DNA of 41,353 bases from Candidatus Heimdallarchaeota archaeon (lineage in GTDB: Archaea > Asgardarchaeota > Wukongarchaeia > Wukongarchaeales > JBHIFL01). Below, piece by piece: positions 30,585 to 41,199 of the stretch (positions are counted from its first letter, which is position 1; each line of letters begins with the position of its first letter). The notes under the pieces are model-generated. The model saw only the letters and a list, made by a program, of their open reading frames with translations, made no database searches and was not told where the DNA came from. The position numbers and the translations under genes are program-made. The DNA lies in the NCBI GenBank assembly GCA_046761065.1, contig JBHIFL010000038.1, forward strand, positions 1 through 41,353, in the 5' to 3' direction.

Positions 30585-31385
30585 TTGGGAAGAACGTCTA
30601 CAGGTGCTCCTCTGTTTGTTTCACTGTTTGGCATACTAGCGATGCTTGCAGGAATTGCGGCCATAGGAATTGGTGGAGCCATCTTAGCAGAATATGACAT
30701 TAGTATAATTCCAACTCAGGATTTGCTTACTAGATTGGCTGTTAGTAAAACAATACTTAGTGCAATATTTATAGTGGCCGGGCTCCTCTTACTCATTTCA
30801 GGGTACGGATTACGTTCGCTCAAATTTTGGGCATGGCTATTGTTCGTCCTAGCGTTTATTGCTACTATTGCCGCTTTTCTTTACCTTGATGCCACATTGC
30901 TTGTTCCAGGTGGAATTCTTGTAGCAATGGCAGTCATTTTTGGTGATTTACTTGCCGAAAATGAATATTTCCTCAAGCCAGAAGAAGAATGGCCTGGAAC
31001 TCCAGATTTTGTAGAGTTACTAAGTTATATCGTCATCCTAATTGGGCTAGTCGCTATAGCTGGTGGTGCGGGAATCTACTTAAAAATCGGCGCATTAACA
31101 GACCGGATCAGTCCTGAAACCGTGGAACGGGCCTACTATGGTCCAATCCAGAGCGTCGAGGCTGTTGGGCTTGTCCTAGCAGTGATTGGTATTATAATTC
31201 TGATTTGTGGCTGGGGACTCAAAACTACTAAAACATGGGCTTGGATTCTATTCTTACTTGTAGGAATTGGAGTAATGGCCCTAGTTTTCATGACATTCCC
31301 AGATATTACCTTACCGGGTGCAGTCCTTGTTGTGGTTTCAGTGATTCTGGGCGATCTCATTGCTGAAAAGCAATATTTCGATTGA
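30585..31385 (+). CDS. Eight-TM membrane protein made of two homologous four-TM halves
   Basis: GYGLRSLKFWAWLLF...GDLLAENEYF matches GWGLKTTKTWAWILF...GDLIAEKQYF. Confidence 0.8.
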   Translation: MGRTSTGAPLFVSLFGILAMLAGIAAIGIGGAILAEYDISIIPTQDLLTRLAVSKTILSAIFIVAGLLLLISGYGLRSLKFWAWLLFVLAFIATIAAFLYLDATLLVPGGILVAMAVIFGDLLAENEYFLKPEEEWPGTPDFVELLSYIVILIGLVAIAGGAGIYLKIGALTDRISPETVERAYYGPIQSVEAVGLVLAVIGIIILICGWGLKTTKTWAWILFLLVGIGVMALVFMTFPDITLPGAVLVVVSVILGDLIAEKQYFD

Positions 31386-31648: not shown

Positions 31649-31674
31649 GGGGAAAGAAAAGTTATATTTTCCCC
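31649..31674 (+). promoter_or_regulatory. Putative BRE-TATA (GAAAAG-TTATATTT) for pelF, enclosed by a 7-bp inverted repeat GGGGAAA/TTTCCCC
   Basis: Read directly at 31649-31674, about 90 nt upstream of the GTG start. Confidence 0.5.
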
Positions 31675-31761
31675 CGAATCTTTGAGAAAAAAAACTGATC
31701 AAATCGCATCAAACTTATGCTTGGACGAACTGGGTGTTTTAAAGCTGCTGTGGTGATCATA

Positions 31762-33195
31762 GTGCCCCACATTGTAATGATCACCGAGGGAACATATCCC
31801 TACTTTGGTGGTGGAGTCTCACGTTGGTGTCATGTACTTCTAACAAAACTCTCCCAATTTAAATTCACAATTGTTGCTATCGTCCCCCCCAAAAAAGTGA
31901 TTGAGAAGTTTGTGCTACCTCAAAACCTAGTTCAAGTAAAACAAGTTCGTATCGGAGACCTTTCCCAGTTCAAAGGGATAGATAAGGCAGTAGTGAATGG
32001 AAATCAAATCAATGAGTTTATTAAAGAAAACATAGAAATGCACAAGGCCTTTATAAGCTCTGATCTTGCTTCAGCCCTCAAAACGACTCAACAGCTCTTT
32101 CCAAAAATTCAAGATGATCCAGTGACTTTTTGGAGGCATAAAAGTGGCCTTAAATACCTCGAGGAGCGATACAAAGATATCAACCCGGAAATCCCGTTCT
32201 ATAAATGGTTAGTATATTGGAAAAATACCCATGCTATGCATCTAAGCCTTGTGGTTCAAAAAATGCCCAAAGGCGATCTGTATCATGCCACGAATTCGGG
32301 TTGGGCTGGAGTTTTAGGACTGTTGGGAGCACAACGCTACGGGAAACCACTGCTTCTCACTGAACATGGTTTAGCTCTTAGGGAACGAGGGATTGCCATT
32401 GAACGAGGGGAGGAAACACCGACTCATGAGCGACTCAGCCTTGCACGAATCAGCATGAGGCTTAATCAACTGGTATATGAAGCGGCTAATCTGATAACCG
32501 TGGTTTGTAAAGCCAATAAAGATTGGTTAGTGCAAAACATCGGAATTCCTGAACATAAGATCGTAGTAACCTATAATGGGGTAGATATTAAGACGTTTAA
32601 GCCAGTAGAGTTGCCAAAAATGCCTTCCAAGATCATAGCCACCATTGCCCGAATTTTTCCCCTCAAAGATATCAAAAATCTGATAAAAGCTGCAAGCATC
32701 GTTTCGCGAAAGAAGCCAGAACTCAAATTCGTAGTTGTCGGAGCTCCAGCAGATCGAGAATATTATAAGGAATGTCTGAATTTGGTAAACGACCTCAATC
32801 TTCAATCGGTTGAGTTTGTTGGAACATCATCGAATGTTATTGCGTGGTATAATCGAATGGGAATTTTTGTTCTCCCAAGCATCAGTGAGGGGTTTCCATT
32901 GACAACGATAGAAGCTATGTCTTGTGGTACTCCTGTCATAGTTACAGATGTTGGAGGAGCGGCCGAACCAGTTAAGGTGGGTCGGCGGAGTTGCGGTTTG
33001 GTGGTTCCTCCGAGCAATCCATCAAAACTAGCGGAAGCTATTTTATTTCTGTACGATAACCTACATTACTATAGAACCCTAAGCCTCAACGCACGGAAAC
33101 TTGTTGAAACGTATTTTTCTGAAACCAAGTTCGTCCAAGAGTATCAAAAAATATATGATGAACTTCTATCGAATATGACTGATAGAAATGAGTGA
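31762..33195 (+). CDS. pelF: GT4 glycosyltransferase, PelF type (DUF3492 + Glycos_transf_1)
   Basis: Diagnostic ITEGTYPY..GGVS.W, DLYHA...GWAG, LLTEHG...RER, YNGVD, ARI.PLKD and LPSISEGFP...IEAM..G.PV..TDVGG; GGTGA RBS before GTG 31762. Confidence 0.88.
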   Translation: MPHIVMITEGTYPYFGGGVSRWCHVLLTKLSQFKFTIVAIVPPKKVIEKFVLPQNLVQVKQVRIGDLSQFKGIDKAVVNGNQINEFIKENIEMHKAFISSDLASALKTTQQLFPKIQDDPVTFWRHKSGLKYLEERYKDINPEIPFYKWLVYWKNTHAMHLSLVVQKMPKGDLYHATNSGWAGVLGLLGAQRYGKPLLLTEHGLALRERGIAIERGEETPTHERLSLARISMRLNQLVYEAANLITVVCKANKDWLVQNIGIPEHKIVVTYNGVDIKTFKPVELPKMPSKIIATIARIFPLKDIKNLIKAASIVSRKKPELKFVVVGAPADREYYKECLNLVNDLNLQSVEFVGTSSNVIAWYNRMGIFVLPSISEGFPLTTIEAMSCGTPVIVTDVGGAAEPVKVGRRSCGLVVPPSNPSKLAEAILFLYDNLHYYRTLSLNARKLVETYFSETKFVQEYQKIYDELLSNMTDRNE

Positions 33196-33287
33196 AGTTC
33201 AAGTTGATGGAGGATAAGTCGGACGAGTAAATTCCTTCAAGCCCTGAAGACAGGGCACCGCTAAAAGGAAATTGGAAGCTTCAAAAA

Positions 33288-35108
33288 ATGCACAATACGA
33301 ATGGTAGAGAGCCCGATCAAGACCTTGATCCACAAACAGAATTAAACGAAACCCCAGATCAACAAAGTGAACGGATGAAACGGCTCCAAACGCTTTTACG
33401 AGAGGCAAATGCGAAAAACAAGTCTTTAGAAGGGGAGCTATCCAAATCGAAATCGGTCTTAAATAAAGTGACTGATGAATTAACTAAAGTCCGTTCCGAA
33501 TTTAATGCCTATGTTGCCGCTTCGAAAGAAGGCATTATGAATCTTGGAAAAGAAAACGAAAAGCTCAAAAAAGAAATTCGAGAGAGGGCTGAAAAGATCG
33601 TTGAGCTCGAATCGAAAGTCATGATGCTCTCACAACTTGGTGTGATGGATTCTGAGGATTTTAGCACATTAAAAGATGATCTCATAGAGTCTAGTGCTAA
33701 ATTGCGGGGAGAGAATGAAGCCCTTCGGGAAGCCCTTAAGAAAGCTGAGGAGAAAACTCTTAGCGATGCCAGAAAACTTCATCAACTACAGGAACAACTC
33801 CAAGCCCACTTAGAAGAAAAACGAAAATATAGTGCAGACCAAAAGCGCCTTCATTTAGAACTAGAGGCACTTCAAAATGATTTTGCAGCTTTAGAACAAA
33901 AATATTTCGAAACACACGCGATCAAAACTCAATTGGAAAATCAGATGGCCGAAGAGGAAGTAATGCACGTTACACTTCAAAAAGCCCGAGAGAAAGTACG
34001 AGAACAAAAAGAGATTATCGAAGGTCTTAAGGCTCATATTTCTGACATTGAAGGGAAATATGGTGCAACATTACATCAAATTGAAATGTTGGACGAGAAA
34101 GAAGAAGAGATCAAGCAACTCTCAAACAAACTCGCTGAATATAGAACACGACTCGCTGAATTGAAATATCAACACCAAATAATGGACGAACAAAAGCAAC
34201 TACTCGTCAAAACCCAGGATGAATTGACCAAAACCCAAGAACAATACGATCAAGCAAGGTTGGAGCTTCAAAAGTTCGAAAACATAAGTTCAATGCTTCA
34301 AGAAAAAGAAAACCTCCTTAAAGAACTCCGTGAAGAACTAATCACTTACAAAGCTAAGGTTGCTGAATTAACTGCTGAAGTTGAAACAACTCATAAATAT
34401 CAGGAACAATTACATGAATCGCAAGATGCAGTCTCGGATCTTATGAGTCGTATCGCAGGTATGGCAACCAAAGTCACCAAATTAAAAGCAGAACTAAAGA
34501 AAACAATTGAGGAAAGAGATAGGAAGTTAAAAGAACAACAAAATGAGATTATCCGACTTAATGAAAAAGTCGGAGTGCTCCAAGCCGAAAACGACCTGAA
34601 ATCTGCAGAGATAGAAGCATTAGAAACACGAGCAAGTAGCGCCGAATCTCAGCTGAGTGCTGTGCAGGAGAGCCTTAGTCGTACTTTTGATCTTGGAGAA
34701 AAACTGGATGCATTTAGCGCCGAGAGCACACAACGGACACTTAGTCTAGAAAAGCGGTTAGAAGTATTTGAATTGACTGCAGATGGACTTGCCCAGATGA
34801 AAGAAGAACTTCTTCGAGAGAAAGAGCTTCTTAAGGAAAAAGTTCACTTATCTGATACTTATATAAAGGTTTTACAACAGACTGACCTAGGGAGGGTCTT
34901 CCTCCTTGTTAAAGCCTTAAGCAAAACCAATGTCGATCACTTGAGTCGCGCTTTAGGAATTCCAAAACTTAATCTGCTTCCTTCTGTAAGAGAACTGGCT
35001 CGGATGGGAGTAATTGACTTAAAAAGAAAAAGTATCACTTTTATTCCTCCGGTTGTGGAAGACGGTTCAGGAAAAGAAGATCTCGTAAAGCTTGCGAGTG
35101 ACTCATAA
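33288..35108 (+). CDS. Long coiled-coil protein (about 500 aa) with C-terminal winged helix; no ATPase motifs or TM
   Basis: Continuous E/K/L/Q heptads; C-terminal RVFLLVK...NVDHLSRALGIP...LLPSVRELARMGVIDL. Confidence 0.8.
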   Translation: MHNTNGREPDQDLDPQTELNETPDQQSERMKRLQTLLREANAKNKSLEGELSKSKSVLNKVTDELTKVRSEFNAYVAASKEGIMNLGKENEKLKKEIRERAEKIVELESKVMMLSQLGVMDSEDFSTLKDDLIESSAKLRGENEALREALKKAEEKTLSDARKLHQLQEQLQAHLEEKRKYSADQKRLHLELEALQNDFAALEQKYFETHAIKTQLENQMAEEEVMHVTLQKAREKVREQKEIIEGLKAHISDIEGKYGATLHQIEMLDEKEEEIKQLSNKLAEYRTRLAELKYQHQIMDEQKQLLVKTQDELTKTQEQYDQARLELQKFENISSMLQEKENLLKELREELITYKAKVAELTAEVETTHKYQEQLHESQDAVSDLMSRIAGMATKVTKLKAELKKTIEERDRKLKEQQNEIIRLNEKVGVLQAENDLKSAEIEALETRASSAESQLSAVQESLSRTFDLGEKLDAFSAESTQRTLSLEKRLEVFELTADGLAQMKEELLREKELLKEKVHLSDTYIKVLQQTDLGRVFLLVKALSKTNVDHLSRALGIPKLNLLPSVRELARMGVIDLKRKSITFIPPVVEDGSGKEDLVKLASDS

Positions 35109-35150
35109 CATTAAACGCGAATAAATAAGATTAGGAATGAGTCGATTAAA

Positions 35151-36236
35151 ATGGAAGGATTAACATTTCTCAGAGATCCGAAAGTTCAAGAATTGATCAA
35201 AGCACTGCTTGATGGGACGATCGAGCGGCTCGAACCTGCATATTCTATCGAAAAAGGGCAGCATTACCCCCTTCTTGAAGAACATCTTGGATTATCCACA
35301 GAGGAAACCAATGATCTCTTGGAACGCCTTGTAATGACAGGTGTATTGACTGAAAAAGTAACTGGAACAATCCTGAAGTGCCCGACCTGCGAATCGACGG
35401 TTCTTCGGCCGATCAATACATGTCCTCGATGTGGATCAACTAATTATGAACGTGGGACCCTTGTAGAACACCACATCTGTGGGAATGTGGGTTTTGAACA
35501 ACACTTCAAGCAAGGTTCGGATTATATTTGTACTCGTTGCGGTGAGTTACTCACCTTAAAAGACTTAGGGCGCAATTGGATAGTTCCCGGGAAGTGGCAT
35601 CGTTGTCGAGATTGCCATTTGTATTTCGAAATTCAACGTACCCAACCTTTAGCCGTTTGTGTCCTTTGTGGGCACAAATTTGATATAAGGGAATCAGTAC
35701 TCGAAGAAGCGAAAACCTATCTTTTGGATCCTTTAGTTTTAGAAGATTTAATGAGTGCTACTGGCGTGACGGAGCCCCTTCTGAAAATGTTAGAAGCGGA
35801 AGGCGCTAAAACAGAAATGCCTGCCAGAATTATTGGTAAATCTGGAATGCTACACCATTTCAGTTTTGCTTTCACCCAAGAACGTGACCCGGAAGCCTTT
35901 GTGGGGGTGGGTGATATCATAATCCGTGCTGCTTCCGTTACAGGGAACGAGTTTTTCAATCATTTAAGCAAGTTCCTTGATATTGAGGCCACCCAGCGCT
36001 TCTTTGTCGTAGCAGGAGCGAGACTAGATGGCGATGCTCGAGGCCTCGCGGAGAGCTATGTCACATGGAGAGGGCCTATTGTCAAGGTTGTTGAAGCACA
36101 AAACCTATCAAACGCGATTCAGAAGTTGAATGAAGCCATCAAAAGCGCTATGAAGGAAGAACCGGAACGCAAAGAATCTGAACTGGAAGTCCTTGAATCC
36201 ATGCTGCAGAAAATGAAAGGCGACCGAATCAAATAG
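35151..36236 (+). CDS. TackOD1-type multi-Zn-ribbon protein with N-terminal wHTH-like segment and C-terminal restriction-endonuclease-like fold
   Basis: Six Zn-ligand pairs (CPTC, CPRC, EHHICG, CTRC, CRDC, CVLC), G..YP...LLERL...GVL and IIGKSG..HHFSF. Confidence 0.8.
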   Translation: MEGLTFLRDPKVQELIKALLDGTIERLEPAYSIEKGQHYPLLEEHLGLSTEETNDLLERLVMTGVLTEKVTGTILKCPTCESTVLRPINTCPRCGSTNYERGTLVEHHICGNVGFEQHFKQGSDYICTRCGELLTLKDLGRNWIVPGKWHRCRDCHLYFEIQRTQPLAVCVLCGHKFDIRESVLEEAKTYLLDPLVLEDLMSATGVTEPLLKMLEAEGAKTEMPARIIGKSGMLHHFSFAFTQERDPEAFVGVGDIIIRAASVTGNEFFNHLSKFLDIEATQRFFVVAGARLDGDARGLAESYVTWRGPIVKVVEAQNLSNAIQKLNEAIKSAMKEEPERKESELEVLESMLQKMKGDRIK

Positions 36237-36291
36237 TTTTATGCAATCAATTTGGTTCAAGAACCGATTCTATCCTAGTAAGGGTCTGAGT

Positions 36292-36305
36292 GTCGAAATT
36301 TCGAC
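36292..36305. promoter_or_regulatory. Perfect 14-bp palindrome GTCGAAATTTCGAC (operator-like)
   Basis: Lies in the gap upstream of the deacetylase-PelG fusion gene and is followed by AT-rich TATA-like sequence. Confidence 0.5.
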
Positions 36306-36462
36306 CTCCTATATTCTTTAAACTATATCTTATTCATTGATCAAAATGTAGAATGGATTAGAATCAATAATTCTTTTGGTAATATTAAAATAACTCCTAT
36401 ACCTGCCTTAATGCAGGTCTAAATATGACCTTTTATCAAATAATGTTTAGAGAGGGGTTACT

Positions 36463-39400
36463 GTGAAGAGGTTAATCAAGATTTCTATCATATTTTCCTT
36501 AATATTTTTAGCTTCCTTTCTTTCATACGAACCTGTACATGCTCAGAAATGCATGGAATCGCTTAACACCGCCTTATCAGATAACCAAAGTAAGCCAATC
36601 CGAGTTGCTCTGATGTGGAACTCGGAATTACCTCCAGACGATTATATGTACAGAGATCTCGAGATTGTAAAAGATATCTTTCACCACTGGAAAATAGCCC
36701 CCCTCGATCTTGTGGATCTATCATCGGGATTGAATATACAAACTCTGGCTGAAACATATTCTACGATTATTCTTCCCTCTGTGGAACTACTCAGTCCTTT
36801 TCTTCCATTCCCCCTTGCAAATGGGACTATAGACGTAATCACAAGCGCCATCGTGAACTATTCCATAAATATAATCTTGGCAAATGTCCAACCAGTTTTC
36901 GATTTTGCCAACCCCATTTATGAAGCCGCATTCGATATGAAAACGGATGGTTCCACTTTTGTTATAGGAGAGAGGTATGAACAGTTGTTTAAATTTCATG
37001 AGGAACCTAATGATTGGATTATAGCTCGTTCAGGGCACAATGTTGTGCTACATGAAAGCCTGTTGTCTTATTGGTGGGGTTTATGCGGATACGACGAGAG
37101 AATAGAATTAGGCATGAACGAAGATTTCACCGCCACAGACTTCTTTAATGTTTTGGGAATCGCCTTACCTGAAGCAATTGCTTGGATCCTCGGGGTTCCG
37201 GCATTTACACTCAGAAACGATGATATATACATAGAATCGTGGAACTTCGACTCCGGTTTTGAAGGCTTAAAAAACTACGTAGAGTTCATGGGGCGAGAAG
37301 CAGGTTGGGTTGAAGCGTCAAATGGCATTGTGGGGTTATATGACCAAGAAACTAACTATGCCTCTGCTCCGTATCAAAGAAAATTAGGGGATTATGGAAT
37401 GCTTGTGTCCCATTCTTGGACTCACCCCTTTTTGTCAACACTGTCTCTCGAAGAACAGATCGAGGAATTAGCAAACACTAAAGATTATCTAGCTAAAATG
37501 TATCCCGATGAATTTGATCCCAGTTTATTCATTGTCCCAAACAATGACTGGAACCAGCTCACATTAGTTGCCCTTAATATGACGGGTCATTCAATGTTTA
37601 CTGCTGCTCGTTTTCGAGATGTCTTGGAGTACATATCAAGTCCAGCTAAAAAGGAAGTATTTCTACAATATGGTTGGTATACTACTGAATATGAAGGTAA
37701 AGAATATTCTGTGTATGGATTTCCTTGGATGTATGCTTATGACGCGAATAGCTCTACTCCTCAAGGTGTGGAGGATCTGAGTCGAACCCCAGAAGGATGG
37801 GTGACCGAAGATTATGCGCGTGGGGGATTCGCTGAAACTCGGAGGACCTTATTTGAATTCTATTACCCATTAATGATCGGAACTCATGGGGTCTATCAAG
37901 CTTGGGAACACTGGGAAAACTGGGAAATAATTACGAGGAATATTATTCAAGGCCTACACGGTGGGGAGATCCCTTACTTGAGAGTAGCAGAGACCGCAGA
38001 ATCAATCCGTGATGTCAAAAATTTGGAGAAGGTGACAATGGAATCAGCGTTCTATGATGACTCTGGAATTACTTTGACACTCACCAATCCTGGACCCGAG
38101 CTTAGAAATATGGTACTCTTTGCAAACTCATTAGAACCCAATTATATTGCCCATGTTTTAGTAGATGATTCTTTACATATCGGATTTGGCGATAATTACG
38201 TTTTCATACCTTCTTTTAGTGGATCGTTGAAGGTCCGAATCCAACTAACCTCCTCAAGTAGTCCAATCCCGACAACGCCTATTCTGCGGGGGATAACCGT
38301 AGGCGGCTTAGAAAAAGCGAGTTTCACCAATTCCGAGGTAGAAATCGAGATCTCAGGGCGTGCAAACCCTGTCTATTTTGCTACAACCATTTTGTCCCTT
38401 GATCTTTCCGGCATCGATCAGGAGGAATCGGTGCAACGGATCTATGTACAAGGAGAGGAAGGCACACGGGGAATTTATCAAATCGCAGATTTAAGGCACG
38501 GTTGGGATGGTTGGAATTACAACGCCGATACTCGTATGCTAAGAATTAAAGCCCGAATATTTGGCAAGGAACAAGTTCGCATCCTTTTGTCAGGCCAACC
38601 ATCCCCCACAATCAATCATAGACCGACTGCTATGATTAATTCACCTTTGAATGGTTCGATTTTCACCGGAAATGCAGCTATCACTCTGCAAGGAGGCGGC
38701 GCGGATGTAGATGGAGATTCATTAATTTACTTTTGGTCTTCCTCTCTGGACGGGGATCTAGGGAATAGCCCCACACTACAGATAAATGGTGCCGATCTAT
38801 CTCCAGGAAATCATGCGATCATGCTTATCGTAGCTGAAAATGGACCCCACTATACTTTTGCTGATCGAACATCAATCAACATCTACATCAGCTCCCGAAC
38901 CATTATTAACCCCATAATACAGAATATCCTGCAAATTGTGGCGATAATTGGCTTAGTACTGGTTATACTTCCCTTAATCGTAAGAAGAAGAGCAAAGAGA
39001 CCGGAATCCAAAAGATCTCGGAAAGAAGAAATAATGTTAGAACCCCTCACATTGTGGAAGATCTTGTATCAGATTTTCCTGAGCAATGGACCTTGGCTCT
39101 TTGCGACAGCATTCTTTCTCATCCTTGGCATGGCATTCATGATGGTGCTTGATTTCCCCGAAAAAAAGATCATGTCCTTCTCACTGGGGATTGCCACTCC
39201 TATTTCATTGATTCTATCAGGATGGCTTGTCGGACTGAGTATTAGAACGGTTTCCGATTATTACATAGAGAATCAAATATTTAGTAGCCGTTACAGTATG
39301 AAACGATTCCTGATGATCGCTTTAACCGCTCTAATTTTGATTGGACTGGCCATGTTTGCGATTATGCAATATCTTGACTTTTCTTTAGAATTGACCTTGC

Positions 39401-40614
39401 TCACATTCAGTTTCTTTATTTCATTTGGCCCACTCTGGTACGCAGTTGGAATGCTTAATGCGTTCAAACGGTATGGTCGGATGACTATCATTTTTGCAGG
39501 GGGAGTGTGCTTTGGATATTCCCTCGCAATGCTGTTTGCAACGACAGGACAACCAACTCTCCTTGTAGGCCTTGCATATGGTGCTGGGTACCTCCTCGCT
39601 GCTATTGGAATCTTCATCTATCTTTTCACGTCCTTGCTCTCAACCCCATGGATTCAAAAGATGAGCGAAGAGGAAATTCGATATTTCTTAGCCCTTCTAA
39701 CAGAACCACGTAGATCCGATACTCTAAAGACCATCCAAGAGAAGACTAGCCTACAACCCCCTTTAACAGAAGATGCTGTTACCCTTCTCAAAGATGGATT
39801 AAAGCTTAGATTGAAGGAGGGGAAGAGTGAACTATCTTTGCGAAGAGTATATGCCAAGAATTCTTGGTTGATTATTGGAGCTATTTGCTACGCGACTTTT
39901 ATTTGGATCGATCGGATCTTCGTTTGGTTCGTGACAGGTCAACAAACAAGTGGTTACGTGCTGGCGATCAATTCAATCTATGAGATTGGTGTGAACATTG
40001 GATTCTGGGTACTCCTGTTTACCACGGGAATGATCGCATTCGCATTTCGAGACTTTTCAGATCGGTACATACAGGCGACGAACCGTCTCTACTCAGACAA
40101 ACTTGACACTATCGAGTCAGGATTGTCTGAACTTGCGGGAAATGTCTTTACCCAGCTACTGAAGATTATTCTGATGGCTGGCATCATAGCGGTTATATTA
40201 TTCGTCAATGCGTCCCAGATTCTCACAATATTCCGAGTTGGGAGTGTAGTAGGTGAAGCTGATGCGCCATATGCAGTTCCAGATATTACACACCCAAGTA
40301 TGGCCTTTACAAGTCCTTCAGTAGTTGTACTTCGCATAGCAGCTATTGATGCGGTGTTTATAGCCATCTTTCTTTACACGCACCTTGGCTTGTCATACTT
40401 GGCGATGTACAAAAAGGCCGCATTAGTTCTTATAATTGCACTTGGAGTGGCGACCCCTCTGGTATTAGTCATTATTACGAACTTTGCTATATATTATGCC
40501 GTCCTAGGTCATCTAGCAGGGTCAGTCGTGGCAGCTGGTGTGGGTATTGTGTTTTTGCGAAAAGAATTGAAACCTGAAACAATAATTCACCGGTATGTTG
40601 CTCCCCAACTTTGA
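36463..40614 (+). CDS. Fusion protein: signal peptide + CE4/NodB polysaccharide deacetylase + Ig/PKD-like domains + TM + PelG-like multi-TM polysaccharide exporter
   Basis: CE4 motifs LRNDD (about aa 252), SHSWTHP (about 317), FIVPNN and GTHG; NHRPTAMINSP..G.GADVDG..L.Y.WSS (about 718); PelG-like SNGPW (about 874), R.VSDYY, WIDRIFVW (about 1148) and YE.G; about 12-13 TM helices. Confidence 0.8.
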   Translation: MKRLIKISIIFSLIFLASFLSYEPVHAQKCMESLNTALSDNQSKPIRVALMWNSELPPDDYMYRDLEIVKDIFHHWKIAPLDLVDLSSGLNIQTLAETYSTIILPSVELLSPFLPFPLANGTIDVITSAIVNYSINIILANVQPVFDFANPIYEAAFDMKTDGSTFVIGERYEQLFKFHEEPNDWIIARSGHNVVLHESLLSYWWGLCGYDERIELGMNEDFTATDFFNVLGIALPEAIAWILGVPAFTLRNDDIYIESWNFDSGFEGLKNYVEFMGREAGWVEASNGIVGLYDQETNYASAPYQRKLGDYGMLVSHSWTHPFLSTLSLEEQIEELANTKDYLAKMYPDEFDPSLFIVPNNDWNQLTLVALNMTGHSMFTAARFRDVLEYISSPAKKEVFLQYGWYTTEYEGKEYSVYGFPWMYAYDANSSTPQGVEDLSRTPEGWVTEDYARGGFAETRRTLFEFYYPLMIGTHGVYQAWEHWENWEIITRNIIQGLHGGEIPYLRVAETAESIRDVKNLEKVTMESAFYDDSGITLTLTNPGPELRNMVLFANSLEPNYIAHVLVDDSLHIGFGDNYVFIPSFSGSLKVRIQLTSSSSPIPTTPILRGITVGGLEKASFTNSEVEIEISGRANPVYFATTILSLDLSGIDQEESVQRIYVQGEEGTRGIYQIADLRHGWDGWNYNADTRMLRIKARIFGKEQVRILLSGQPSPTINHRPTAMINSPLNGSIFTGNAAITLQGGGADVDGDSLIYFWSSSLDGDLGNSPTLQINGADLSPGNHAIMLIVAENGPHYTFADRTSINIYISSRTIINPIIQNILQIVAIIGLVLVILPLIVRRRAKRPESKRSRKEEIMLEPLTLWKILYQIFLSNGPWLFATAFFLILGMAFMMVLDFPEKKIMSFSLGIATPISLILSGWLVGLSIRTVSDYYIENQIFSSRYSMKRFLMIALTALILIGLAMFAIMQYLDFSLELTLLTFSFFISFGPLWYAVGMLNAFKRYGRMTIIFAGGVCFGYSLAMLFATTGQPTLLVGLAYGAGYLLAAIGIFIYLFTSLLSTPWIQKMSEEEIRYFLALLTEPRRSDTLKTIQEKTSLQPPLTEDAVTLLKDGLKLRLKEGKSELSLRRVYAKNSWLIIGAICYATFIWIDRIFVWFVTGQQTSGYVLAINSIYEIGVNIGFWVLLFTTGMIAFAFRDFSDRYIQATNRLYSDKLDTIESGLSELAGNVFTQLLKIILMAGIIAVILFVNASQILTIFRVGSVVGEADAPYAVPDITHPSMAFTSPSVVVLRIAAIDAVFIAIFLYTHLGLSYLAMYKKAALVLIIALGVATPLVLVIITNFAIYYAVLGHLAGSVVAAGVGIVFLRKELKPETIIHRYVAPQL

Positions 40615-40830
40615 ATTGCAAACAATTAATGCCTACTTAATTTTCTCTGTTGCTAATTCACACATCCCCTTATTGAAGGGACAGTGCAAGAAAAGGGTCC
40701 TTTAAACCTTCTTGTGATATCATGCCCCACAATTCACACGGAGAACTTTAAAAACAAAGGTATAAAAAAAACTGTGGAATTAATCATCTATAGAACTTGT
40801 TATTTAATAATGTTGCAGTAGGTGAATGCT

Positions 40831-41199
40831 TTGCCTGTCTGCCCCTCATGTTTTGCCTACTACGTCCGTTCTCCTTGTCCCTATTGTGCAGATAAAGGGC
40901 ATCCCAGAATCTCTGAATCACAATTTGAGAGTTTGAAACCGTCAAGTGAAGTTGCGACTGAGGAAAAAGCCATACGAAGGCAAGTAACAGATCTTCAAGG
41001 CAAGGTTGAGTTACTTCAGACAGAGAATCAAAGACAGAAAGAGGAAATCACTGAAAAAAATCGCGTGATTGCAGGATTAGAGTCCGAATTACGTTCCGTT
41101 CAGGATGATCGAGACTTTTTACTTAGTAAGATTGCAGAATTGGAAGGTAAAGACAAAGAAGTCATTGCTCCAGAAACAGTACAGGACACAAATGATTAG
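40831..41199 (+). CDS. Small N-terminal C4 Zn-finger + coiled-coil protein
   Basis: [M]PVCPSC..YY..PCPYC followed by heptads; TTG 40831 is 5 nt after AGGTGA. Confidence 0.75.
   Translation: MPVCPSCFAYYVRSPCPYCADKGHPRISESQFESLKPSSEVATEEKAIRRQVTDLQGKVELLQTENQRQKEEITEKNRVIAGLESELRSVQDDRDFLLSKIAELEGKDKEVIAPETVQDTND

Follow-up and report, generated by a model that had tools for sequence, protein, structure and literature searches.

The 41,353-nucleotide contig JBHIFL010000038.1 of a Candidatus Heimdallarchaeota archaeon (assembly GCA_046761065.1; the whole contig, labelled C38, is hereafter the window) encodes what we consider, with a probability of about 0.65, to be a synthase-dependent machine for a Pel-type exopolysaccharide in a Heimdall-group Asgard archaeon, which has been pared down to the needs of a cell with one membrane and deacetylates its product during export. 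The core of this machine, that is, a polymerase, an exporter and a deacetylase operating without PelD and cyclic di-GMP (c-di-GMP), is well supported by profile matches, membrane topology and the phyletic pattern, and it is plausible, with some independent support, that the three cytoplasmic proteins encoded together with it regulate the machine or serve as its scaffold. The main new points are a deacetylase and an exporter combined in a single polypeptide chain and a third case in which the TackOD1 domain is linked to polysaccharide export.

The locus consists of five open reading frames (ORFs) on the plus strand, as do all its features described below, which span positions 31717-41199 and are separated by spacers of 92, 42, 226 and 207 bases: pelF (31717..33195), a gene for a 606-aa coiled-coil protein (33288..35108), a gene for a TackOD1 protein (35151..36236), a fusion gene with a GTG start encoding 1383 aa (36463..40614), and a gene for a 125-aa Zn-ribbon coiled-coil protein (40822..41199). 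The original prediction, made from this DNA alone, had described an archaeal Pel-type system of five co-directional genes; all five ORFs are in place, and the profile searches bear out an Asgard PelF/PelG locus. The source assembly comprises 4.42 Mb in 234 contigs and is estimated to be 91.5% complete, with 8.2% contamination.

The first gene codes for a glycosyltransferase of family 4 (GT4) that had been taken for PelF, an assignment the searches confirm. The protein scores 213.8 bits against the NCBIfam equivalog NF038011 (cut-off 100), 163 bits against DUF3492 (PF11997; residues 18-272) and 121 bits against Glycos_transf_1, and it contains the motifs EGTYPY at residue 24, GGVS at residue 32 and, at residue 391, the EX7E-type EGFPLTTIE. 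Generic GT4 equivalogs (MshA, BshA, EpsE and others) all fall far under their own cut-offs, in line with PelF rather than a generic GT4. The protein is 45% identical to PelF of Candidatus Asgardarchaeum abyssi (JBECUL010000012.1; hereafter G004) and 41% identical to PelF of a member of an Odin-like genus (G001), compared with 24-31% for plasmid-borne bacterial PelF. Because relatives align from residue 18 onward only, translation probably starts at M21 (nucleotide 31777). Two further accessions considered as Pel families, NF038010 and NF038012, were rejected given that they belong to non-Pel families.

The exporter is the C-terminal module of the fusion protein (residues 867-1383; 39061..40611), a PelG-type protein of the MOP superfamily with multiple transmembrane (TM) segments. 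Against the PelG profile (PF16933, EPS-E, TC 2.A.66.6), which has a cut-off of 29, it scores 56.1 bits in hmmscan; when the genome was searched, two stretches totalling 60.9 bits covered both halves of the profile (positions 24-209 and 230-445 of 452). The module aligns over its full length with the stand-alone Asgard PelG proteins at 26-27% identity (E = 2e-50 and 2e-38), so that the predicted kinship with PelG stands, and an hhalign comparison with Cetobacterium PelG gave a probability of 82% (E = 1e-5). A word-indexed search with the module alone returned one fragment of a close relative only. About 12 hydrophobic segments follow residue 867, and the basic stretch preceding them argues for a cytoplasmic start. 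Between the two halves lies a soluble cytoplasmic insert of ~70 residues (39646..39867), outside the Pfam PelG model (profile positions 209-230 span residues 1052-1133), which is present in the PelG proteins of G001 and G004 and mostly gapped against Cetobacterium PelG. A winged helix-turn-helix (wHTH) domain within this insert was considered and rejected, with zero wHTH family matches and a sequence that is not conserved between families.

The part of the fusion protein that precedes the exporter begins with a signal peptide (residues 1-28; 36463..36546), which has a hydrophobic stretch at residues 4-22, ends in VHA before QK and is kept in all 5 relatives. Because of this conservation, we regard the GTG at 36463 as the right start; the public record of the protein, with 1353 aa, starts 30 residues late at an internal ATG and thereby loses the signal peptide. 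The C-terminal end of this part is a single linking TM helix (residues 822-840; 38926..38982; hydropathy peak 3.11) followed by a poly-basic cytoplasmic run, both conserved in all relatives of the fusion protein. Taken together, the conserved signal peptide, TM helix and basic stretch would place the region between them outside the cell and the start of PelG inside.

Within this ectodomain, the first recognisable unit (~residues 45-240; 36595..37182) consists of alternating beta and alpha elements; it has zero Pfam matches at E <= 5 and shows a beta-alpha-beta pattern with a local predicted local distance difference test score (pLDDT) of 55-78 within an otherwise poor AlphaFold2 (AF2) model. 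It is followed by a NodB-type domain resembling deacetylases of carbohydrate esterase family 4 (CE4), at ~residues 245-500 (37195..37962), identified by PF01522 (Polysacc_deac_1; 28.7 bits for the whole protein and 31.1 bits for residues 240-560, cut-off 23.1) and by motifs. The candidate catalytic set comprises D253/D254 (MT1), H317/H321 (MT2, HSWTH), P359 (MT3) and H475 (MT5), with MT1 and MT5 assigned by order and spacing, and is invariant in 6 of 6 homologues; MT2 aligns with the metal-binding HSWSHP of PgdA (2c1g). From the first Asp to the last His, the domain covers 222 residues, and the distance between D262 and H488 of Bacillus cereus PelA_DA is 226 residues (PMC13254593). Searches of PDB sequences with the ectodomain profile gave weak CE4 matches around MT2 (E about 0.01), and the PelA_DA structure 9ZAU was absent among the matches; a word-indexed profile search with residues 28-560 returned nothing at E <= 0.01. 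An embedding comparison placed the ectodomain at 0.93-0.95 to bacterial clusters of 550-612-aa proteins, some with DUF2194 or CE4, which we treat as a lead only. Gram-positive PelA contains DUF2194 (PMC7890745), and because sequence likeness to DUF2194 or PelA_DA was not found here, we call the ectodomain CE4-like rather than PelA_DA. It may nevertheless act like PelA_DA. Of the deacetylase proposed originally, an extracellular CE4-like module fused to PelG is thus retained, and the label 'PelA-like' turns out to be too specific.

Between the CE4-like domain and the membrane, modelled beta strands form a beta-rich stalk (residues 520-716) and then a PKD/Ig-like domain (residues 717-812; 38020..38898 for the two together), the latter with weak PDB sequence matches to a bacterial Ig domain and the PKD of KIAA0319L. 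This promiscuous repeat dominated the phmmer search with the ectodomain, which yielded 1,224 representatives at E <= 0.001: nearly all of the 150 matches listed cover residues 717-812 only, the exceptions being a close relative (P0008) and a 115-aa fragment (P0123, query residues 8-78), and none of the 150 touches the CE region.

Among 5.8 billion proteins, the fusion protein has five relatives, all of ~1380 aa and 54-86% identical. Related contigs, which we label L003, L004, L005 (= L030) and L031 (JABAOC010031910.1), retain the order pelF, coiled coil, TackOD1, fusion gene and small gene as far as the contigs reach, with L005, the most distant of them, cut upstream of the coiled-coil gene so that pelF is off the contig. 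The synteny expected elsewhere was accordingly found in all four, and the 125-aa gene directly follows the fusion gene in each. With respect to the three closest contigs (L003, L004 and L031), identity is 90-91% for the TackOD1 protein, 86-87% for PelF, 83-84% for the coiled-coil protein, 71-73% for the small protein, 64-65% for the PelG module and 59% for the ectodomain (59-65% for the fusion protein overall), such that the cytoplasmic proteins are the most constrained; identities to L005 are lower (53-75%, from 53% for the small protein to 75% for TackOD1). On L031 (6306-10467), the fusion gene reads as two pieces of 1266 and 118 aa, which points to either a frameshift or a misassembly close to its 3' end.

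Beyond these close kin, we searched 301 Asgard genomes with profiles at the family cut-offs. PelG, PelF and a second, shorter GT4 with DUF3492 (442-446 aa) occur in exactly the same 6 genomes, which belong to three families: the genome analysed here, four members of the Odin-like genus (1.3-1.4 Mb) and Ca. Asgardarchaeum abyssi. Being rare in this sample, the locus appears to be a trait of particular lineages rather than of Asgard archaea at large. In the present genome, the second GT4 has 442 aa and is encoded on the minus strand at the end of contig C108 (L008; 10331-11659); it is 30% identical to the GT4 abutting PelG in Asgardarchaeum. C108 appears to continue the window contig, with the same synteny as on the related contigs. 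In Asgardarchaeum (G004), a Ras-like GTPase, a TackOD1 protein and PelG are encoded in a run, with 11 bases between the ORFs for the latter two; this TackOD1 protein matches that in the window in overall architecture, at 27% identity. When genome contigs were searched for TackOD1 loci with narrow patterns, the Asgardarchaeum locus alone was returned. In G001, two genes come after PelG at gaps of 11 and 13 bp, the first of 161 aa and the second for a coiled-coil protein of 424 aa. Stand-alone PelG proteins of yet another lineage (517 aa, 26% identical to the module described here) were observed on three JGI metagenome contigs (L032, L033 and L035), where neighbouring genes encode an HEPN protein, a STAND-NTPase/FHA protein of 958 aa and a small Zn-ribbon protein; pelF was not seen on these short contigs.

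The components of bacterial Pel systems that are involved in c-di-GMP signalling were searched for in the entire assembly. No GGDEF domain (PF00990) was detected in the 4.42 Mb, with positive controls, and no PelD_GGDEF domain (PF16963), a weak result given that the controls were silent. The statement that the window lacks a c-di-GMP receptor holds, and with these two profiles none was found in the whole assembly either. A Cetobacterium PelD-like GAF protein used as the query matched nothing in the genome, nor did one candidate PelE-like Cetobacterium query, which shows little. In canonical systems, PelD is a c-di-GMP-binding membrane protein that combines GAF with a degenerate GGDEF domain, and PelE is a small hub protein of the membrane/TPR type. 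As for canonical PelD and PelE elsewhere in the genome, whose absence was part of the original prediction, nothing was found, in what amounts to a weak check. Profile search identified no GH114 or PelA-type hydrolase in the genome. A Gram-positive-type pel locus was encountered in Fusobacteria, on the Cetobacterium somerae plasmid NZ_CP143320.1 (L038; 3199-12433), with genes for PelA_H, a GAF protein, a DUF2194 protein, a hypothetical protein, PelF and an unusually long PelG (703 aa).

The three remaining genes of the locus encode cytoplasmic proteins that had been described as a coiled-coil/wHTH protein, a TackOD1-like Zn protein and a Zn-finger coiled-coil protein, and the searches agree with all three descriptions. 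The TackOD1 protein has three domains, namely, a wHTH, TackOD1 itself (a triple Zn ribbon) and a degenerate PD-(D/E)xK fold. TackOD1 (PF18551) scores 106.9 bits (cut-off 32) and has the full signature of five CxxC motifs and one HxxC motif (residues 77, 91, 107, 127, 152 and 170), with all eleven Cys positions, and no others, invariant across 26 Asgard sequences; in the AF2 model built from these sequences (pLDDT 83.8), residues 66-192 form a zinc-ribbon sheet. Given that the last domain lacks an invariant acidic residue or Lys in the 26 sequences, the nuclease is probably dead. We rejected GKSG in this domain as a P-loop, since G004 has GKA instead and the domain resembles a PD-(D/E)xK fold. 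One copy of TackOD1 was found in this genome, at this locus, and the profile matched none of 14 control genomes. In the TackOD1 tree, the Pel-linked copy of G004 is the nearest to this clade by path length, without support. TackOD1 has been seen in type IV pilus loci of Thaumarchaeota, and its function has been called obscure (PMC5847659).

The 606-aa protein is a soluble coiled-coil rod, proline-free at residues 24-558 and with profile matches of the coiled-coil type only, which ends in a wHTH-like domain (~residues 530-590); the latter is detected as a sub-threshold TrmB wHTH match of residues 515-606 (E = 0.024). The protein aligns with the 424-aa coiled-coil protein of the G001 PelG operon, including the C-terminal end (last 50 residues). 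The 125-aa protein combines a Zn ribbon (CPSC at residue 7 and CPYC at residue 19) with a coiled coil.

Three promoter-like elements were noticed in the locus. Upstream of pelF, the stretch 31649..31674, a putative pelF promoter judging from its sequence, contains a TATA-like AAAGTTATATTT (31658-31669) inside the inverted repeat GGGGAAA...TTTCCCC and is mostly preserved in L003. Before the fusion gene, a TATA-like box (36378-36393) is followed, 45 bp before the gene, by the perfect palindrome ACCTGC-N6-GCAGGT (36401-36418), a candidate operator or hairpin in the 5' untranslated region. L003 and L004 share the block 36378..36418, and L031 does so with a single mismatch, within a spacer that otherwise varies; in L005, the palindrome is degraded. 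The sole other copy of the palindrome in the genome is inside an ORF on contig C5 and hence probably due to chance. The small Zn-ribbon gene has a conserved TATA box, AAAGGTATAAA (40756-40766), and the block ACAAAGGTATAAA before this gene is identical in L003, L004 and L005, in a spacer that has otherwise diverged. Since even L005, the relative farthest removed, retains this box, the small gene probably has a transcript of its own.

Farther upstream, the window encodes a penicillin amidase-family protein, altronate dehydratase, ketopantoate reductase, PAC2 and YdjM, which are housekeeping genes unrelated to the locus. A 266-aa ORF located 332 bp upstream of pelF (30585-31385) is predicted to form ~8 TM helices in two similar halves, each ending in an (I/L)(L/I)AE(Y/K)-like sequence; it has no Pfam family and is kept in L003.

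The families (PelF, PelG, CE4-like and TackOD1), the topology and the phyletic pattern come from profiles and alignments, and from these we infer the following mechanism. Cytoplasmic PelF would polymerise UDP-HexNAc, by analogy with bacteria UDP-GalNAc into an alpha-1,4-GalNAc chain, which would exit through the PelG module of the 1383-aa protein. Outside, the CE4-like ectodomain of the same polypeptide, held over the exporter by the single TM helix and the beta-rich/Ig-like stalk, would strip part of the N-acetyl groups from the emerging chain, and the resulting polymer would be cationic and form a surface layer or a matrix. The 606-aa coiled coil, the TackOD1 protein and the small Zn-ribbon coiled coil would constitute a control layer in place of PelD, PelE and c-di-GMP. 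TackOD1, which is fused to receiver domains in Thaumarchaeota and adjoins small GTPases in many Asgard genomes, would be the signal-output module, most likely switching on the fusion gene or the machine itself, acting either at the TATA box plus palindrome or docked on the cytoplasmic insert of PelG, with the coiled coils serving as a scaffold. A structure prediction for the complex of the PelG module and the TackOD1 protein gave a score of 0.00, that is, no answer, which counts neither for nor against binding. In a wider and distinctly speculative version of this scheme, which we consider unlikely as a whole, TackOD1 proteins would be the archaeal counterpart of c-di-GMP receptors in synthase-dependent exopolysaccharide systems, a general switch that responds to receiver domains, small GTPases or KaiC-type ATPases and thereby gates polymer synthesis; here, TackOD1 and the two coiled-coil proteins would assemble into a cytoplasmic platform on the PelG insert specific to Asgard archaea and control PelF, and the fusion would reflect a physical coupling of export and de-N-acetylation in Pel systems generally.

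Several observations weigh against the reading of the locus as a Pel-type machine with co-export deacetylation and its own control layer. On the side of the deacetylase, the PF01522 match spans profile positions 62-122 of 124 only; the AF2 model of the ectodomain (residues 28-820, six homologues) has a mean pLDDT of 38, too low to reveal the distorted (beta/alpha)7 barrel of CE4 enzymes; and neither Pfam search, in which DUF2194 gave no match to the ectodomain at E <= 5, nor hhalign comparison with the DUF2194 protein of the Cetobacterium pel operon (probability 0.35%) detected any likeness. On the side of the substrate, no epimerase is encoded within the locus; with regard to the UDP-GlcNAc 4-epimerase to be sought in the genome, a GalE-like gene is present elsewhere and scores just under its equivalog cut-off. 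At 91.5% completeness and 8.2% contamination of the assembly, absence is no proof. On the side of the control layer, TackOD1 is above the cut-off in 96 of the 301 Asgard genomes, mostly without Pel genes, compared with 6 for PelG; the TackOD1 tree is a polytomy in which the two Pel-linked copies are not resolved as sisters; in G001, the TackOD1 gene is 60 kb away from PelG; and further metagenomic PelG relatives have no TackOD1 neighbour. In 20 other Asgard TackOD1 loci (~4 kb around the gene, 114 neighbour proteins), the commonest neighbours are small GTPases and KaiC (Arf 7, Roc 6, Ras 5, KaiC 5), and not sugar genes. Judging from the modelled domains, a wHTH combined with a nuclease-like fold would suit a DNA-binding regulator equally with a scaffold or docking module. 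Finally, the syntenic contigs come from close kin and the flank in L003 is syntenic as well, reaching the unrelated upstream genes PAC2, HSP20 and YdjM, so that conserved gene order among them says little on function.

These observations bear on how much of the locus belongs to one system. It might be that only pelF and the fusion gene work together and that the genes for the coiled-coil, TackOD1 and Zn-ribbon proteins, which could be DNA-binding or chromosome-associated, for instance, have nothing to do with them and are retained nearby through kinship. The extent of the synteny in L003, the abundance of TackOD1 in Asgard genomes without Pel and the company it keeps there, its DNA-binding type of folds and its distance from PelG in G001 all agree with such an arrangement. 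We nonetheless find it improbable, in view of a second family in which a TackOD1 gene, at just 27% identity of the protein, again immediately precedes PelG, the coiled-coil protein in a tight PelG operon of a third family, the TackOD1 gene being the only one in this genome, and the interleaving of genes for all three proteins with those for PelF and the exporter in one orientation. Somewhat more probable, although still less likely than not, is the possibility that TackOD1 is purely a transcription factor that binds the palindrome of the fusion gene and stays outside the synthase complex, with the coiled coils serving another purpose. The palindrome is perfect, is located just downstream of a TATA-like box, is kept in three or four relatives despite a variable spacer and has no other intergenic copy in the genome. 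Yet no second palindrome precedes pelF or the small gene; L005, despite a TackOD1 protein of 75% identity, has only a degraded palindrome; and wHTH domains mediate protein contacts, too. The original proposal that the coiled-coil and TackOD1 proteins replace PelD and PelE thus stands in part: it draws on TackOD1 preceding PelG in G004 and on the coiled coil in the PelG operon of G001, and is held back by the fact that roughly one in three Asgard genomes has TackOD1, for the most part with no Pel genes, by a fold that suits a DNA-binding regulator as much as a scaffold and by a complex prediction that gave no answer.

The product and the origin of the locus can be questioned as well. Instead of a free matrix polysaccharide, PelF and PelG might make a glycan linked to the cell envelope or S-layer, or a polymer of another sugar, with the CE4-like domain being a binding module or a different esterase. 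Our literature search found no characterised product of an archaeal PelF/PelG pair, no gene for a deacetylase lies close to the other Asgard Pel loci, neither a PelA-type hydrolase in the genome nor an epimerase in the locus was found, and CE4 enzymes have many substrates. However, the PelF equivalog score is well above the cut-off, neither the D-H-H metal triad nor the acid/base residues vary, and a deacetylase tethered over an exporter makes sense mainly for a polymer emerging there, which renders a different product an unlikely option. That the contig is a bacterial contaminant of the bin, as might be suspected from the estimate of 8.2% and from Pel being best known from bacteria, is highly improbable: the window encodes PAC2, the nearest relatives of PelF (41-45%) and PelG (26-27%) are Asgard proteins compared with 24-31% for bacterial PelF, TackOD1 gave no match in any of the 14 control genomes, and the gene order on C108 goes on as it does on the related contigs. 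A Pel-type machine that deacetylates its polymer at the exporter remains our preferred interpretation of the locus.

Asgard archaea live in close contact with partner organisms, and a cationic surface polymer, if made, would be a plausible attachment factor. The locus also provides an example of the layout of a Pel-type machine in a lineage where GGDEF was not found, and it singles out three candidate control proteins, TackOD1 among them. The large survey of operons covers bacteria only (PMC7112194), and a description of an archaeal Pel system was not found in our literature search. The original prediction knew of no described Asgard Pel system either; this holds apart from one sentence in a 2021 transporter census, which mentions a homologue of EPS-E (the PelG family) in Odin (PMC7997004).

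Compared with the other Asgard loci, those of G004 and G001, the present one has PelF and PelG of the same clades and the same PelG insert, and the genome likewise contains an extra short DUF3492 GT4. In those genomes, unlike here, PelG is a stand-alone protein (509-535 aa) with no deacetylase nearby; G004 has an added Ras-like GTPase and no coiled coil, and G001 has no adjacent TackOD1. The TackOD1 protein shares with the published family (PF18551, arCOG06883; Galperin et al. 2018, PMC5847659), the naming paper being the only one on TackOD1 found in the literature search, the signature, the wHTH-TackOD1 architecture and the Asgard/TACK distribution. It differs from the published proteins in having no receiver domain, in the C-terminal degenerate PD-(D/E)xK fold and in belonging to a Pel-type and not a type IV pilus locus.

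According to the account of the Pseudomonas aeruginosa system in PMC7099134, as cited in PMC13254593, pelABCDEFG and the PelDEFG complex share with the present locus the PelF and PelG core and partial de-N-acetylation as a maturation step. Relative to that account, the PelA hydrolase domain, PelB, PelC, PelD and PelE are missing here, and deacetylation would take place at the membrane instead of the periplasm. Fusions of a deacetylase are known from some poly-N-acetylglucosamine (PNAG) operons, where PgaB deacetylase domains are joined to glycosyltransferase domains, an arrangement read as deacetylation at the cytoplasmic membrane (PMC7112194). As in our fusion protein, the deacetylase is attached to a membrane-side component of a synthase-dependent system; the PgaB fusions, however, are bacterial, belong to PNAG systems with a GT2 synthase and involve a different fusion partner.

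Of the systems described so far, the Gram-positive pelDEA(DA)FG of B. cereus ATCC 10987 (PMC7112168) comes closest; its PelA_DA is a membrane-anchored extracellular deacetylase, with the structure 9ZAU published in May 2026 (PMC13254593). Both systems have one membrane to cross and no outer-membrane parts, and both combine PelF and PelG with a tethered extracellular metal-dependent deacetylase, here CE4-like, that carries accessory domains. Unlike in B. cereus, PelD, PelE and GGDEF were not found here, the coiled-coil, TackOD1 and Zn-ribbon genes are added, and the ectodomain has no sequence likeness to DUF2194 or PelA_DA. In B. cereus, the packing of the PelA_DA TM helix on PelG and the deacetylation of the chain while it emerges, at present the sole proposal for a coupling of Pel export to deacetylation, come from AlphaFold models alone (PMC13254593). 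There, deacetylase and PelG are two proteins, whereas here they are one polypeptide, and the covalent connection of the ectodomain to PelG provides a gene-fusion ("Rosetta stone") argument for the coupling of PelA_DA and PelG. The archaeal fusion thus supplies independent, evolution-based evidence that deacetylation and export act side by side, and offers a simpler construct for structural work.

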